IMG/VR virus record: IMGVR_UViG_2671180524_000022 | Origin: a virus | Lineage: Duplodnaviria > Heunggongvirae > Uroviricota > Caudoviricetes | Strand: one strand, 5' to 3' | DNA length: 5,076 nt | Shown here: in pieces, positions 1 to 5,076 of the stretch | How positions within the stretch are numbered: position 1 is the first letter of the stretch | Layout: each line of letters opens with the position of its first letter | Notes under the pieces: model-generated | The model's input: the letters and a program-made list of their open reading frames with translations, nothing else | Database searches by the model: none | What the model was told of the DNA's origin: nothing | Position numbers and translations under genes: made by a program

Positions 1-728
1 TCGAACAATATCCCGGTGCTTGTTCAGCTCCCGCAGCGCGGCGCAGACTCGCTCCCACTTCTGAACATCACTTTTCGCCCTGCGCAGCGCCAGGTTTGCC
101 CTGCGCAGGGACGGAAAAATCAGCTCATCTGCTTGCGTTTCGGTAAACGATGGCAACGGCTGCACAATGTCCGCCACAGTTTCTGTTTTAATTTCTTCCT
201 GTGTTGCGGCTTCCCGGACTGGTAACGCAGCACCTGCTGGCTGAGGAAAGGCCTTACCATCACTTTCCGTTACCAGCGCGGCTTTCGGCTCTGCTGGTAA
301 ATTATCGCCCGGCATGCAGTAACGAAATTTACCGTTCTGATTAACGCGTGCCAGCCGCCCCGTTGCGGTTACCACCGCCAGCGTGGAAGCAACCTTGCGA
401 GTACTGACGCCGAACTTACCCGCCAGTTCCTCACACGTTTTAGCACCATCCTGACCGATAAACTCAACCATCATGTCTGCGGTAACTTTTGGAGCGACCT
501 CTTCGGTTACCACATCCGGCGCTTCAGGTTGTAGTGCCTGCCCTTCGGTTACCCCGGCTTCACCTTCGACAGCCAGAAACCAGGTGTGACCCGTTTTATC
601 AACAACGCCATTTTTTTGAGTTCCCACAGTTCGTTAAGAACTTCTTCACGGCTGATATCAAGCCGCGCCGCCAGTTCAACAGAATTGGCTTTTCCCATCG
701 CTTTCAGTGCATGCAATACAGTTTCCAT
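1..728 (-). CDS. Uncharacterised prophage protein with two tandem winged-helix-like modules; reading frame broken at an A7 homopolymer (plus-strand T7 at 611-617); C-terminus lies beyond the window start. Possible pseudogene or homopolymer sequencing error.
   Basis: Minus-strand ATG at 728-726 with GAGG about 10 nt upstream (rc of 739-742). This frame reads [39 protein letters not shown] and stops at 551-549. A second minus frame is open from 633 to position 1 and reads ...[20 protein letters not shown]...[54 protein letters not shown].... The two frames overlap only in 552-633, which contains the homopolymer. My own translation; the ORF track does not show it because there is no stop in the window and the frame is shifted. 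Confidence 0.5.
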
Positions 729-753
729 CGAAAATTTACCTCGTCAAAAATTC

Positions 754-1494
754 TCACATACCCTGACGTCCAACGTTTGACCGCCAGCTCTCCCAGTTAA
801 AATTCACCCAACGACCACCATTCATGGTCATACGGTCCATCACCCGATCTCCGAGGAGTGTGCTCATCGCTGCGTGATTCAGGTTCGTCAGCATTCCGAC
901 ACTACGCATCGAAGCCGTTCTGCGGTCGACTATCTGGTTCAGCGTGACCTGCTCGTTGCGCGTATCCCGCTGCATGCCAATTTCATCAAGGACCAGAAGG
1001 TCAACTCCACAAAGCTCCTGTAAAAATTTTTCCCCGGACTGGCCGTTGTCGTAGCCGTCATGCAACACGCTCATGACATCGGACACGGTGACGATAATCA
1101 CGCTTCTCCCCTTCGCCATCAGCCGATTGCCAATCGCTGCTGCCAGGTGATTTTTACCGGTACCAGGTTTACCGCTGAACACGAAGTTTGTACATCCGGT
1201 CATCAATTCATCGGCAATGGATTTCGCCTGGCTCAGAGCATGGCGCTGACCGTCGTTCTGCACCCGGTAGTTCCCGAATGAGCACTTCCTGTGAAGCGGC
1301 TGGATGCCCGCACGGTTCAGGATTTTTTCAACCCGCACCTGATGATTCAGGCGGTTAATCTCCTCGCTGCGTTTTCGTCCTTCAGCAAGTTGCCATTCCC
1401 GCCACTCCTCCACCGTCCGGTACGGTGGAACCGCCCCCTGTGGTGCAAGTCTGCGAATACGTTCAAGAACCCCAACTGCCGCAATGTTTTTCAT
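754..1494 (-). CDS. dnaC: DnaC-family AAA+ helicase loader (prophage replication protein, lambda P functional analogue; Rac YdaV-like)
   Basis: 246-aa ORF. Walker A FSGKPGTGKNHLAAAIG, Walker B DLLVLDEIG, and near-colinear similarity to E. coli DnaC as I recall it (PLHxxCSFxNYRV, NQIVDRR, GMLTNxN, LGxRVMDRM). Minus-strand ATG at 1494 with GGGGG about 10 nt upstream; lies 6 nt downstream of the initiator stop. Confidence 0.93.
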   Translation of the reverse strand: MKNIAAVGVLERIRRLAPQGAVPPYRTVEEWREWQLAEGRKRSEEINRLNHQVRVEKILNRAGIQPLHRKCSFGNYRVQNDGQRHALSQAKSIADELMTGCTNFVFSGKPGTGKNHLAAAIGNRLMAKGRSVIIVTVSDVMSVLHDGYDNGQSGEKFLQELCGVDLLVLDEIGMQRDTRNEQVTLNQIVDRRTASMRSVGMLTNLNHAAMSTLLGDRVMDRMTMNGGRWVNFNWESWRSNVGRQGM

Positions 1495-1500
1495 GACACG

Positions 1501-2463
1501 TCACCCCCTGAATCCCGGCGGTATTTCAGTGTCCGGTTCAGAAATGTGATTCACGCAACGCTGCGCGGGCGAACGCCCCAGGCGGATAACCAGTTCATCC
1601 CATTTTTCCCGGAGTTTTGCCGGACTCATGATGTTTTTTACCCAGAACGAATCCCGCTGGAGACGCCCAAACATTTCACAAATTTGTCTGTGAGTTCTGC
1701 CATCCAGCATCCGCATTGTCCGCACGTCATTGGCCCATGCAGTCCAGTTGGGTTCTTTCGGTCTCGTGATCTCGCCATCATCGCTGGCCGCCTGCTCGTA
1801 AAGACTCACGATTCGTCCCCAGATCCACTGTGCGCACACCAAATCTTCCTGACTTCCCCACTGGCGTTTTTTCGCACTGAACACAACCGCGTCAGGGTGT
1901 CGGGTTAAAAAATTCTGTTCAGCCGTCTGCGGGTCCGGTTGCGAAGCGTCCGGACAAGAAGATCTTTTATCTGACGGATCAGGTTTTAATACTGACGGAT
2001 CGGGGTCAATCATCGCCCCCCTAATCGGCAGTTTGTTATCAACAGTTGATCCATCAAAATTTGACGGGTCAACCGTTGAGGGGGCAATATTTGACGGGTC
2101 AACTGTTAACGGGTCATTTTTTGCCGGGCTAATTTTTCTTTTCGGTTTATATGACTCACGCGCCGCCGCAGCAGCTGCTTCGAGTTTTTCCACATTAAGC
2201 CGATAGATATTGCTTACATTACGCCCACCGACCTTACGCTCTTCCTTCGTCAGCCAGCCCTCTTTCGCCAGTTCTGCAATAGCCGATTTCACTGTGGATT
2301 CACTTCTTGCACCGATCTGACGCCGGATAGTTTCAATGGCAGGCCATGACACGCCCTCGTCATTGCTGTAGTCTGCAAGACGGGCCATAACCGCCACCCT
2401 GGATAAGATCATGCCGGTGAAGGCGCACCCTTCCCAGACAAGACCATGAAGCTTGCTGCTCAT
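1501..2463 (-). CDS. Phage replication initiator (lambda O analogue): N-terminal winged-helix DNA-binding domain, Pro/Asp/Ser-rich repeat linker, C-terminal domain
   Basis: 325-aa ORF in the track (GTG at 2478). ATG at 2463-2461 preceded by GGGG is the more likely start (MSSKLHGLVWEG...). The N-terminus (SWPAIETIRRQIGARSESTVKSAIAELAKEGWL) is HTH/winged-helix-like. It sits directly upstream of the helicase loader. The linker is encoded by the iteron-like DNA repeats. Confidence 0.8.
   Translation of the reverse strand: MSSKLHGLVWEGCAFTGMILSRVAVMARLADYSNDEGVSWPAIETIRRQIGARSESTVKSAIAELAKEGWLTKEERKVGGRNVSNIYRLNVEKLEAAAAAARESYKPKRKISPAKNDPLTVDPSNIAPSTVDPSNFDGSTVDNKLPIRGAMIDPDPSVLKPDPSDKRSSCPDASQPDPQTAEQNFLTRHPDAVVFSAKKRQWGSQEDLVCAQWIWGRIVSLYEQAASDDGEITRPKEPNWTAWANDVRTMRMLDGRTHRQICEMFGRLQRDSFWVKNIMSPAKLREKWDELVIRLGRSPAQRCVNHISEPDTEIPPGFRG
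1969..2120. repeat. Iteron-like direct repeats and nested palindromes inside the initiator gene, with an adjacent AT-rich tract (2116-2156); candidate prophage replication origin
   Basis: CTGACGGATC at 1971-1980 and 1992-2001 (period 21). ATTTGACGGGTCAAC at 2059-2073 and 2089-2103 (period 30). CGGGGTCAAT at 2001-2010 and ACGGGTCAT at 2109-2117. Palindromes ATCAACAGTTGAT (2038-2050) and TTGATCCATCAA (2046-2057), plus TTGAC-GG-GTCAA within each 15-mer. T-rich stretch attttttgccgggctaatttttcttttcggtttatat follows. Confidence 0.5.
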
Positions 2464-2485
2464 AAAACCCCCGAACACCGTGCTT

Positions 2486-2880
2486 TTAGTGCATCACCAC
2501 AGCATTCCCTGCCGGGCCGCCGCGATTCATCTGGTCATACAAAACAACCGCTGACGCAACAAAATCATCGACATCCTTCACCAGCCGATCCCTCCGTTCG
2601 ACGATCTCACGGTAATATTCAGAACTGTGGCTGCGCATACGGGCCACCAGCAAAGGCGGCATCGCCTTTTCGATCGCCGGTAACAGAGCCTGCATTTTTT
2701 CAACAGCATCAGGGGTGTCTTTATCCNNNNNNNNNNNNNNNNNNNNNNNNNNNNNNNNNNNNNNNNNNNNNNNNNNAGCTCGAAATACGCTTTGGTAATT
2801 TTCGCAGCCGGTACTTTTTCGCCGTCCGGATGCGCCCAGACATTCATCGCCATGCGGATGTGTTCATGCTTGATTTTCAT
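2486..2880 (-). CDS. YdaT-like protein (cII-position gene of Rac-type prophages), interrupted by the assembly gap; true length unknown
   Basis: N-terminal piece MKIKHEHIRMAMNVWAHPDGEKVPAAKITKAYFE from ATG 2880-2878, which overlaps the cro-like stop as ATGA. C-terminal piece ...DKDTPDAVEKMQALLPAIEKAMPPLLVARMRSHSSEYYREIVERRDRLVKDVDDFVASAVVLYDQMNRGGPAGNAVVMH ends with TAA at 2488-2486. The two pieces are in different frames across the 50 N, as expected for a gap of arbitrary length. The MKIKHEHI start matches my recollection of E. coli YdaT. Confidence 0.55.
2727..2776. other. Assembly gap (run of 50 N)
   Basis: 50 consecutive n characters, seen directly. Confidence 0.97.
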
Positions 2881-3179
2881 GAATCAACTCCATCAGATAA
2901 GCATGCACTACAATCACCTTCAGCATGAACTACATGTGTTTGCCCCAAACGAATGCCGCTCGCATACTCAGGCCAAATAAGCTCCCAATCATGGGGTCGT
3001 AGCTCCGCCCTACTTACTTGGCCTTCCGTCGCAGATTCGATCATAAGGGCGCGGGTTGGAGATATAGCTGTTCGTCCAGACGCCATTTGCGATAAGTAAG
3101 ATGGCGATACACCAAGTCTGGCCGCGAATTTCTTAGCATCACCAACCCTTAATGATTTAATAAACTCTTTTAATGTCAT
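2877..3179 (-). CDS. Cro-like HTH regulator, YdaS family
   Basis: 100-aa ORF. Strong SD GAGGAAGG immediately upstream of ATG 3179-3177. HTH segment AARLGVSPSYLSQMASGRTAISPTRALMIESATEGQVSRAELRP. Divergent from the repressor gene across the operator region. Stop TGA overlaps the next gene's ATG. Confidence 0.8.
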   Translation of the reverse strand: MTLKEFIKSLRVGDAKKFAARLGVSPSYLSQMASGRTAISPTRALMIESATEGQVSRAELRPHDWELIWPEYASGIRLGQTHVVHAEGDCSACLSDGVDS

Positions 3180-3185
3180 ACCTTC

Positions 3186-3272
3186 CTCGGTTTAGTGTTT
3201 TTTTGCGAGTTTAGTGTTTAATAAACCATTAAGTCAAGTATTTGCTTGTTTAGTGATTACTAAAGATAATTA
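3186..3272. promoter_or_regulatory. Divergent promoter/operator region (OR-like) between the repressor and cro-like genes
   Basis: Direct repeats GTTTAGTGTTT (3190-3200, 3209-3219) and GTTTAGTGATT (3248-3258). Palindromes GTTTAATAAAC (3216-3226) and TTTAGTGATTACTAAA (3249-3264). Plus-strand promoter candidate: -35 TTGCTT 3242-3247, 17-bp spacer, -10 GATAAT 3265-3270. Minus-strand promoter candidate: -35 TTGACT (rc of 3232-3237), 18-bp spacer, -10 TAAACT (rc of 3208-3213). Confidence 0.5.
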
Positions 3273-3276
3273 CCAC

Positions 3277-3648
3277 ATGCAAAAAAAAGAAATTCGCCGT
3301 TTACGTCTCAAGGAGTGGTTTAAAGATAAAACTCTGCCACCCAAAGAGAAGAGCTACCTATCTCAACTAATGAGTGGGAGAGCCTCGTTTGGAGAAAAGG
3401 CTGCCAGAAGAATAGAGCAAACATACGGGATGCCGGAAGGGTATCTGGATGCGGAATACGCAGAACAACCGGGGGGTTCTCCACCACATGCAGGGTTAAC
3501 GTCTAATCAACTGGAATTATTGCAGATTTTTTCAGCCTTCCCTGAGGATGAGCAACGCCAGATAATCAGCGAGTTAAAGCAGAAAAAAGAATCAATGGAA
3601 GATCTCATAGCGAGATGGATTGCGGCGCAAAAATGCCGCCGCGCCTGA
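3277..3648 (+). CDS. paaR: HTH immunity repressor at the cI position; likely also regulator of the downstream toxin-antitoxin pair (PaaR-like)
   Basis: The track ORF starts at 3214, but the ATG at 3277 (123 aa) lies just downstream of the -10 element and clear of the operator repeats. HTH segment KEKSYLSQLMSGRASFGEKAARRIEQTYGMPEGYLD. C-terminal LTSNQLELLQIFSAFPEDEQRQIISELK resembles the DicA C-terminus as I recall it. Stop TGA at 3646-3648. Gene symbol from recalled operon architecture only. Confidence 0.7.
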   Translation: MQKKEIRRLRLKEWFKDKTLPPKEKSYLSQLMSGRASFGEKAARRIEQTYGMPEGYLDAEYAEQPGGSPPHAGLTSNQLELLQIFSAFPEDEQRQIISELKQKKESMEDLIARWIAAQKCRRA

Positions 3649-3668
3649 GTTATAAAACCGGAGGAAAC

Positions 3669-3860
3669 ATGAATAGAGCCCTTTCACCAATGGTTTCTGA
3701 ATTTGAAACCATTGAACAAGAAAACAGTTACAACGAATGGCTGCGTGCGAAAGTAGCAACGAGCCTTGCAGATCCGCGCCCAGCAATTCCCCATGACGAA
3801 GTTGAGCGCAGAATGGCAGAACGCTTTGCTAAGATGCGCAAGGAACGGAGCAAGCAGTAA
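3669..3860 (+). CDS. paaA: Small antitoxin (63 aa), PaaA-like partner of a ParE toxin
   Basis: ATG 3669 with GGAGG at 3660-3664. Product MNRALSPMVSEFETIEQENSYNEWLRAKVATSLADPRPAIPHDEVERRMAERFAKMRKERSKQ is small and charged, consistent with a partly disordered antitoxin. Its stop TAA at 3858-3860 is 1 nt before the toxin ATG. Length matches my recollection of PaaA2 (63 aa). Confidence 0.75.
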   Translation: MNRALSPMVSEFETIEQENSYNEWLRAKVATSLADPRPAIPHDEVERRMAERFAKMRKERSKQ

Positions 3861-3861
3861 A

Positions 3862-4140
3862 ATGTTACCCGTGTTATGGCTTGAAAGCGCAGATACCGAC
3901 CTAGATGATATAACTAGTTATATTGCTCGTTTCGACATAGATGCGGCTGAACGCTTATGGCAGCGATTAAGGGGTTGTGTGCTGCCGTTATCCGAACATC
4001 CGTATTTATACCCACCAAGCGACAGAGTACCTGGCTTGCGTGAGATTGTAGCCCACCCTAACTATATAATTCTATACCGCGTAACAACATCAAGCGTTGA
4101 AGTAGTAAACGTGATCCACGCAAGACGCCAGTTTCCCTAA
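3862..4140 (+). CDS. parE: ParE/RelE-superfamily toxin (92 aa)
   Basis: ATG at 3862 in the same frame as track ORF 3766..4140. Product MLPVLWLESADTDLDDITSYIARFDIDAAERLWQRLRGCVLPLSEHPYLYPPSDRVPGLREIVAHPNYIILYRVTTSSVEVVNVIHARRQFP shows the typical ParE pattern (N-terminal helices, C-terminal ...ILYRV...VEVVNVIHARR). Translationally coupled to the upstream antitoxin. Confidence 0.85.
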   Translation: MLPVLWLESADTDLDDITSYIARFDIDAAERLWQRLRGCVLPLSEHPYLYPPSDRVPGLREIVAHPNYIILYRVTTSSVEVVNVIHARRQFP

Positions 4141-4157
4141 CTTTCACTACCAATAGA

Positions 4158-4205
4158 AACATAACAACCGCAACGACTTTATCAAAAGCGTTGTGTTTGT
4201 TATGT
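4158..4205 (+). terminator. Imperfect inverted repeat downstream of the toxin gene; possible terminator or protein-binding site
   Basis: Left arm aacataacaaccgcaacg (4158-4175) and right arm cgttgtgtttgttatgt (4189-4205) pair at about 15 of 17 positions around a 13-nt loop. No clean U-tract follows, so this is not a canonical intrinsic terminator. Confidence 0.25.
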
Positions 4206-4210
4206 CCCGC

Positions 4211-4255
4211 GGTTTAGTTTTTACTTGACTTAAGTTTAATGTTTATTAAACTAAA
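4211..4255 (+). promoter_or_regulatory. Second operator/promoter-like module (OL/pL-like), rightward
   Basis: GTTTAGTTTTT (4212-4222) and palindrome GTTTATTAAAC (4241-4251) resemble the OR motifs. -35 TTGACT 4225-4230, 16-bp spacer, -10 TAAACT 4247-4252. The TTGACTTAA...GTTTATTAAAC...TAAACT arrangement is shared with the minus-strand cro promoter candidate. Confidence 0.35.
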
Positions 4256-4570
4256 AATACCAACCCACCCCGCCCCACAGAACGCAGGGAAATACTTCGA
4301 GTTACCCGGCAGTGGTCAGGGGTTAAGTAGCCAGCCCGAGGCGTATGAACATGACGGCAGGGTTCAACTTTAATAACTATGCAGCAGTTTTTTGTTCCGC
4401 TACCCCGGCGTTAAGGGGAAACAGAGGGTTTCTCAGTGGGCGAAGTCAAACATCAGAATGGAAGGCATCCCGGGATCGGCAAAGAAGCAGCAATGGCGCT
4501 TTATATTGACATCAGCGCCATTGCAGGACAGGTAAGAGTTATCAGAGCGGTAACTAAGCGGTATGCGCCT

Positions 4571-4771
4571 TTACTTCAGAAAGTCTCTGGTGAGTGCACC
4601 GAAGATATTGTCAACGATTTCGTCATCGAACTGCGAGGACTCATCTTCAGTTACAAGGTGACCACAATTTTTGCAGATGGCTCCCGCGAAACTGTCAGAG
4701 CCCTGCGGCTTAAAGGATGTGTCAAAGACTTCGCCACCACATTCTGGGCAAGAAAACTTGATTGTATTCAT
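4571..4771 (-). CDS. Small zinc-ribbon protein (CxxC...CxxC), function unknown
   Basis: Minus-strand ATG at 4771-4769 (the track starts at TTG 4777) with SD GAGAGGAA 7 nt upstream. Product MNTIKFSCPECGGEVFDTSFKPQGSDSFAGAICKNCGHLVTEDESSQFDDEIVDNIFGALTRDFLK has two CxxCG pairs and an acidic tail. Few rare codons, unlike the overlapping plus-strand ORF. Confidence 0.6.
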   Translation of the reverse strand: MNTIKFSCPECGGEVFDTSFKPQGSDSFAGAICKNCGHLVTEDESSQFDDEIVDNIFGALTRDFLK

Positions 4772-4864
4772 AACCAATTTCCTCTCGAGTAACAGACCCC
4801 TCAGAGGATACCACCTCGCCTGACGTGGTTAAAAAGCAGGCAACGCTAACCACAAGGAGCCGAC

Positions 4865-5076
4865 ATGCAGAAACGAGACCCCGTCATCATCGCGCCAGAC
4901 TATACCGATGATGAACTTTATGAGTGGATGCACCAGAAAATTAAGGCGGTGCAGGACCTGAAATGGGCCAATGAAGCCAGGGCTAAGCAGGCTGAAAATC
5001 TGTCCGCTCTGGAGCAGGATATCACCAATCTGGAAAAAGCAGCGGCATTAAGCATTGCCAGAATGATTACATACCC
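4865..5076 (+). CDS. Hypothetical protein, 5' portion only (runs off the window end)
   Basis: AAGGAG at 4854-4859, 5 nt before ATG 4865. Open to the window end: MQKRDPVIIAPDYTDDELYEWMHQKIKAVQDLKWANEARAKQAENLSALEQDITNLEKAAALSIARMITY.... Absent from the ORF track because there is no stop in the window. Coiled-coil-like composition from about residue 25. Confidence 0.6.
   Translation, partial: MQKRDPVIIAPDYTDDELYEWMHQKIKAVQDLKWANEARAKQAENLSALEQDITNLEKAAALSIARMITY

Follow-up and report, generated by a model that had tools for sequence, protein, structure and literature searches.

The PaaR2-PaaA2-ParE2 toxin-antitoxin operon in the immunity region of the Escherichia coli O157:H7 prophage CP-933P/Sp12

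When a toxin-antitoxin operon occupies the place at which a lambdoid prophage carries its repressor gene, does the regulator of the operon also govern immunity, and what is the toxin there to do? The question is raised by a 5,076-nucleotide stretch of viral DNA (Caudoviricetes; IMG/VR record IMGVR_UViG_2671180524_000022), the whole of which is referred to here as the window. An earlier note, made from the letters of the window, read positions 3277-4140 as a regulator-antitoxin-ParE operon whose regulator may at the same time be the prophage repressor. It suggested that toxin expression is thereby tied to lysogenic immunity, with a role in prophage stabilisation, abortive infection or superinfection exclusion.

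Identity of the locus and of its three genes

A megablast search against complete E. coli genomes identified the window as the immunity region of the O157:H7 prophage Sp12, which in strain Sakai is the same element as CP-933P of strain EDL933. In a base-by-base comparison, positions 313-4830 were identical to Sakai with the exception of a 50-N gap, and this span takes in both operator regions (OR and OL), ydaS and the YdaT binding site. The differences from Sakai, 12 substitutions and one 1-base indel, all fall within 263-312 and 4831-4957, the second patch lying mostly inside ydfC; this clustering suggests small mosaic exchanges. The run of 50 Ns at 2727-2776, where Sakai has 81 bp, is a scaffold gap or a mask of arbitrary length, and because it interrupts ydaT, that gene cannot be read through in the window. 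The genes and the one protein binding site considered below are as follows.

3277-3648, plus strand: paaR2 (ATG at 3277, TGA at 3646-3648), a 123-aa helix-turn-helix (HTH) regulator and functional analogue of lambda CI
3669-3860, plus strand: paaA2 (ATG at 3669, TAA at 3858-3860), a 63-aa antitoxin, with GGAGG at 3660-3664
3862-4140, plus strand: parE2 (ATG one base past the paaA2 stop, TAA at 4138-4140), a 92-aa toxin of the ParE/RelE fold
2877-3179, minus strand: ydaS, the Cro analogue, 100 codons, divergent from paaR2 and 97 bp from its start
2870-2887, no strand assigned: OM, the high-affinity site of the CII analogue YdaT, TTGATTTTCATGAATCAA, at the ydaS/ydaT junction by PRE933P

Regulator, antitoxin and toxin follow one another in that order and in one orientation, the genes being separated by 20 nt and by 1 nt. 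The open reading frames and the raw sequence bore out every coordinate that had been given for the three genes, as well as the GGAGG and the 1-nt gap. Longer reading frames at 3615-3860 (81 aa) and 3766-4140 (TTG start, 124 aa) were dismissed because the crystallised proteins fit the 63-aa and 92-aa forms. A longer start for paaR2 (3214-3648, GTG, 144 aa) was likewise dismissed on account of the published N-terminus, MQKKE.

All three products matched solved structures. Residues 2-63 of PaaA2 were 100% identical to 3zbe_A and 5cw7 (E = 5.5e-37), and the protein matched the Pfam family PF21217 (PaaA2, E = 1e-19); neither an HTH nor an RHH domain was matched in it by the Pfam scan. Residues 1-92 of ParE2 were 100% identical to the crystal structure chain 5cw7_B, deposited as 'ParE' (E = 7e-60), with a match to PF05016 (ParE_toxin, E = 1.9e-16) and weak matches among solved structures to 3kxe_A, 6x0a_A and 5ceg_B. 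The Pfam scan matched no family in PaaR2. A sequence search of solved structures identified this regulator through 7nkv_A, to which native residues 1-66 were 100% identical (E = 5e-41). Both 7nkv_A and 8c3k, which also matches residues 1-66, were deposited as 'Phage repressor protein CI', and the solved chains cover this N-terminal, DNA-binding domain only. The Sakai counterpart of paaR2, ECs_2279, is annotated CI. The protein and HMM searches that the earlier note had suggested thus returned the PaaA2 and ParE_toxin families and, through 7nkv_A, the regulator, and its recognition of a ParE/RelE-like pattern in the 92-aa product was upheld by PF05016 and by the identity to 5cw7_B.

The features by which PaaR-PaaA-ParE systems are recognised were found together at this locus: three co-oriented and closely packed genes, a separate HTH regulator gene upstream of the toxin-antitoxin pair, a short PaaA-type antitoxin that is without a DNA-binding domain, and a toxin of the ParE/RelE fold. 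The three genes are exactly the PaaR2-PaaA2-ParE2 type II toxin-antitoxin operon that a cryptic prophage of E. coli O157:H7 carries. Their assignment in the earlier note to this family with a 63-aa antitoxin is confirmed by the complete identity to solved chains and by PF21217. Within the module no difference was found from paaR2-paaA2-parE2 of EDL933 CP-933P and Sakai Sp12 (PDB 5CW7, 3ZBE, 7NKV). The three-component system goes back to Hallez et al. (2010; cited from PMC8630535). It resembles two-component parDE systems (RK2 ParDE, Caulobacter ParDE1 3KXE, Vibrio cholerae ParDE2) in its ParE-fold toxin and labile antitoxin. Unlike them, it has an antitoxin without a DNA-binding domain, and its transcription is under a separate regulator belonging to a phage switch. 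For the identical sequence it has been published that the toxin kills, that the antitoxin neutralises it and that the module stabilises a replicon, and PaaA2 is degraded by ClpAP and ClpXP (PMC8630535).

Operators, promoters and the CI analogue

The regulatory elements that surround the three genes are listed here by position.

3186-3276, no strand assigned: OR region, with GTTTAGT repeats at 3190, 3209 and 3248 and the promoters PR933P and PRM933P
3237-3208, minus strand: PR933P, TTGACT at 3237-3232 and TAAACT at 3213-3208, from a consensus promoter scan
3242-3270, plus strand: PRM933P, TTGCTT at 3242-3247, a 17-nt spacer and GATAAT at 3265-3270, hexamers read by eye
4159-4205, plus strand: hairpin (arms of 22 nt) that follows the parE2 stop and precedes OL
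4210-4255, plus strand: OL and PL933P, with repeats at 4212 and 4234, TTGACT at 4225, a 16-nt spacer and TAAACT ending at 4252

The heptamer GTTTAGT occurs four times in the window (at 3190, 3209, 3248 and 4212) against 0.49 expected, and none of 200 shuffled sequences reached four; the repeat at 4234 is a degenerate fifth copy. The PR and PL regions are inverted copies of each other (3216-3239 and 4228-4251) that bracket the three genes. The operator repeats to which the regulator had been expected to bind are therefore real by count, and binding to them has been published (PMC8630535). The OR region has been examined by EMSA, DNase I footprinting and 5' RACE; PaaR2 and YdaS both leave footprints on the 97-bp intergenic region, on repeats with the consensus GTTTAGTAA, and PL is repressed by both proteins (PMC8630535). 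With the hexamers of PRM933P so placed, transcription would begin on the A that opens the paaR2 ATG, in agreement with the leaderless mRNA found by 5' RACE, in which the transcript begins at the ATG and the protein at MQKKE (PMC8630535).

On the other side of OR, the product of ydaS matched the Pfam families YdaS_toxin (E = 3.3e-12) and HTH_3 (E = 6e-7). The Sakai annotation names the genes flanking the intergenic region Cro and CI, ydaS being the one annotated Cro. PaaR2 and YdaS have the recognition-helix stretch SYLSQ(L)M(A)SGR in common, so that the placing of the regulator gene at the cI position, divergent from a cro-like gene (ydaS, 2877-3179, minus strand) whose product carries the same helix motif, proved right. 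The YdaT site, TTGATTN6AATCAA, has one exact match in the window against 0.01 expected and was mapped by footprint by Prolic-Kalinsek et al. (2023; PMC9986795).

Exactly this locus, an immunity region in which PaaR2 takes the cI position, was studied by Jurenas et al. (mBio 2021, PMC8630535), who combined single-cell work and reporter fusions with footprinting and 5' RACE. PaaR2 was shown there to be a functional analogue of lambda CI that binds operators at OR and OL. At a low level of PaaR2, PRM is activated and PR repressed; competition between PaaR2 and the Cro analogue YdaS gives a bistable switch whose state is inherited, and mutation of paaR2 removes one of the two states. YdaT is CII-like and turns on a PRE-like promoter (PMC8630535). 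That the toxin-antitoxin regulator acts in the switch as an analogue of CI, in line with the conjecture of the earlier note that it and the prophage repressor may be one protein, has in this way been demonstrated experimentally. The reading of the regulator as doubling for a cI-like repressor is correct; it was published in 2021 and is hence not new.

The layout is of the lambdoid cI type, with a divergent cro-like gene, repeated operators, face-to-face promoters and a second set at PL. As in lambda, where cI-rexA-rexB lies between OL/PL and OR/PRM with cro-cII divergent, gene order and orientation are kept, each end has its operators, the mRNA for the repressor lacks a leader, partners of Cro and CII type take part in a bistable switch, and the repressor gene shares its transcript with two accessory genes. 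The positional likeness to cI-rexA-rexB, also drawn from the letters before, is stated in PMC9986795, according to which paaA2-parE2 replace rexA-rexB and PaaR2 replaces CI. The differences from lambda lie in the parts. The accessory genes encode a ParE toxin and its antitoxin whereas those of lambda encode RexAB, OR carries four 18-bp repeats against three in lambda (PMC8630535), and YdaT, unlike lambda CII, is a POU-domain tetramer (PMC9986795).

PaaR2 itself is without sequence homology to lambda CI. In the Pfam scan, no S24 autocleavage domain, which marks the lambda CI family, was matched in its 123 residues; its C-terminal 45 residues form a separate, PaaR-specific conserved domain of oligomerisation type. 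A peptidase or autocleavage motif is likewise reported to be missing, and the protein does not respond to mitomycin C (PMC8630535), a behaviour explained by the missing S24 domain. Because it has a different C-terminal domain, no S24 domain and no response to mitomycin C, PaaR2 is an analogue of CI that stands outside the lambda CI protein family.

The hairpin at 4159-4205 has an RNA minimum free energy of -23.4 kcal/mol (z = -5.56), and none of 200 shuffles was equally stable. As a canonical intrinsic terminator it was rejected, since no U-tract follows at its 3' side and the terminator scan made no call. The transcript of the PRM operon probably has its 3' end at this hairpin, which may serve to mark or to stabilise that end.

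Further features were observed at the edges of the region. Downstream of PL lies the Sakai gene ECs_2282, encoding a small zinc-ribbon protein (4571-4777, minus strand, opposite to PL). It is overlapped by a 118-codon reading frame on the PL strand (4436-4792, plus strand), which is the one annotated in phage Evi. Five iteron-like repeats of the TTGACGGGTCAAC type, with a 15-bp period, occur at 2039-2128 within an O-like replication gene (1501-2478, minus strand) and are probably the prophage replication origin.

Relatives in E. coli genomes and in phage Evi

The module was found at a coverage of at least 80% in 608 of 5,426 complete E. coli genomes. The same arrangement of genes also occurs in diverged prophages whose regulators have a different DNA-binding domain; two of these, L004 and L005, were used for comparison in place of O157:H7 paaR1-paaA1-parE1 (CP-933M). 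ParE is 70-91% identical across the diverged relatives. PaaR is modular: one of two unrelated HTH N-terminal domains is followed by a C-terminal part of about 45 residues that is conserved (LTxNQLELLQxFxAFPE...KKExM...ARWLAAQ). In prophage L005, an XRE-type PaaR stands alone at the cI position. In E. coli 00-3076 (L004, 2863-4163, NZ_CP027584.1), paaA-parE is preceded by two PaaR-type regulator genes in a row, with 19 bp between them; the first encodes a PaaR2-like protein of 123 aa, the second an XRE-type protein of 153 aa, and the C-terminal domain is common to both. This tandem variant, present in 17 of the 5,426 genomes, would represent a recombinant immunity region that retained the toxin-antitoxin pair, and retention of the pair through such recombination is an outcome foreseen by the published addiction hypothesis.

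In the phage collection there was one close match, Escherichia phage Evi (LR597642.1, 40,019 bp), with 98.4% identity over all of 3181-4260. Its layout, ydaT-ydaS / paaR-paaA-parE, is the same; its ParE is identical to that of the module, its PaaA differs by one residue and its PaaR by two. The parE gene of Evi is intact but unannotated in the LR597642.1 record (L002, 6586-6960; L003, about 24916-25195). The structural, lysis, Q, replication and integrase modules of Evi are all complete, and the phage is a plaque-forming temperate coliphage isolated from samples of one-year-old children (PMC6969025). Since Evi is viable and forms plaques, the module is not confined to decayed prophages. A 254-aa HTH-cupin regulator of Evi was considered as another possible repressor; it sits in a rightward operon downstream of the replication genes, away from the immunity locus and the cI position, but may still have a regulatory part.

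The role of the toxin-antitoxin pair

As a whole, the observations are best explained, and very probably so, by a three-component toxin-antitoxin operon inside the immunity region of the lambdoid prophage CP-933P/Sp12. The present analysis established what all the parts are, how the genes are arranged and where the operators and promoters lie; DNA binding, regulation, bistability and plasmid stabilisation have been published for the identical sequence (PMC8630535). In this explanation PaaR2, encoded at the cI position and translated from the leaderless PRM transcript, binds the repeated operators of GTTTAGT type in OR and OL. When scarce, it represses PR (ydaS-ydaT) and PL and activates its own promoter; when abundant, it represses its own promoter as well. 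The Cro-like YdaS contests the same operators, making the switch bistable and heritable, and the CII-like YdaT, acting on TTGATTN6AATCAA, opens through PRE a second way of expressing the operon. ParE2 is neutralised by PaaA2 wrapping around it, with PaaA2, lacking a DNA-binding domain, being degraded by ClpAP/ClpXP. Upon loss of the locus ParE2 would be freed, leading to cell damage that is nucleoid-associated and SOS-inducing. As an addiction module, the pair would in this manner safeguard the prophage and its immunity region from loss or replacement.

This agrees with the published view. The locus is addictive, in that the region stabilises a mini-F plasmid, and the authors propose that the toxin-antitoxin pair guards the immunity region from rearrangement or replacement (PMC8630535); the suggestion of prophage stabilisation in the earlier note is in keeping with their proposal. 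From stabilisation data that come from plasmids, we infer prophage stabilisation as the natural role of the pair. Some points run counter to the explanation. CP-933P is cryptic, and the published data are reporter and switch data. The natural trigger of ParE2 release has not been observed, SOS being silent in both states of the switch, and PaaR2 is without the RecA-cleavable domain of CI (PMC8630535; no Pfam match here). The claim that toxin expression is tied to immunity holds for transcription and fails for activity: the toxin-antitoxin genes are transcribed in both switch states, and ParE2 activity, measured as SOS induction, was detected in neither (PMC8630535).

Two other accounts of the module were weighed. 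It might be a device for abortive infection or superinfection exclusion like RexAB, in which phage infection or shut-off of host transcription would leave PaaA2 without resupply and ParE2 would stop the infected cell. Its genes have the same position as rexA-rexB, 3' of the repressor gene in the PRM operon, the degradation of PaaA2 by ClpAP/ClpXP is a property on which toxin-antitoxin-based abortive infection relies, and the module is intact in a viable temperate phage. However, a PADLOC-DB scan of the three proteins gave no defence family at E <= 0.01, PMC8630535 nowhere mentions abortive infection, exclusion or superinfection, and the titles and abstracts returned by a literature search on PaaA, ParE and anti-phage activity report no test of this system. 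We regard this account as improbable. Much the same low probability attaches to the wider idea that the pair, being wired into the lysis-lysogeny switch, would act in RexAB-like exclusion or abortive infection or as a commitment step in the lytic programme of the phage; a role beyond host addiction is conceivable because the pair is both wired into that switch and kept intact in Evi. If it were true, once PRM is shut off, whether through YdaS at induction or because a superinfecting phage stops host transcription, the labile PaaA2 would decay and ParE2 be freed.

Still less credible is the account in which PaaR and PaaA together make up a split antitoxin, so that the module would be an autonomous cassette beside the prophage switch, its cI-like behaviour incidental and immunity the work of another protein. 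The idea was raised by the 2021 authors (PMC8630535), and it gains from the makeup of PaaR, whose conserved C-terminal domain stays linked to paaA-parE and whose N-terminal domain is variable. The 17 genomes with the tandem variant have another regulator of PaaR type, encoded after the gene at the cI position and before paaA-parE, and Evi encodes an unrelated regulator, the HTH-cupin protein, elsewhere in its genome. It is countered by the binding of PaaR2 to OR and OL, the repression of PR and PL and the loss of one switch state upon paaR2 mutation (PMC8630535). Between the cro-like gene and OL, moreover, no further repressor gene was found in the window, in Sakai or in Evi, and in the diverged prophage L005 the cI position is likewise taken by a single regulator, of the PaaR1 type. 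We consider this account very unlikely.

The reading of the locus as an addiction operon within the prophage immunity region adds little to what is known, as the same sequence has already been characterised genetically, biochemically and structurally. The additions made here are modest and consist of the module at the cI position of phage Evi and the modularity of PaaR with its rare tandem variant. The immunity that PaaR may confer, and the part that ParE2 may play in induction or superinfection, are matters for which the cryptic CP-933P is not a practical system, whereas Evi, which carries the module at the cI position, is one.
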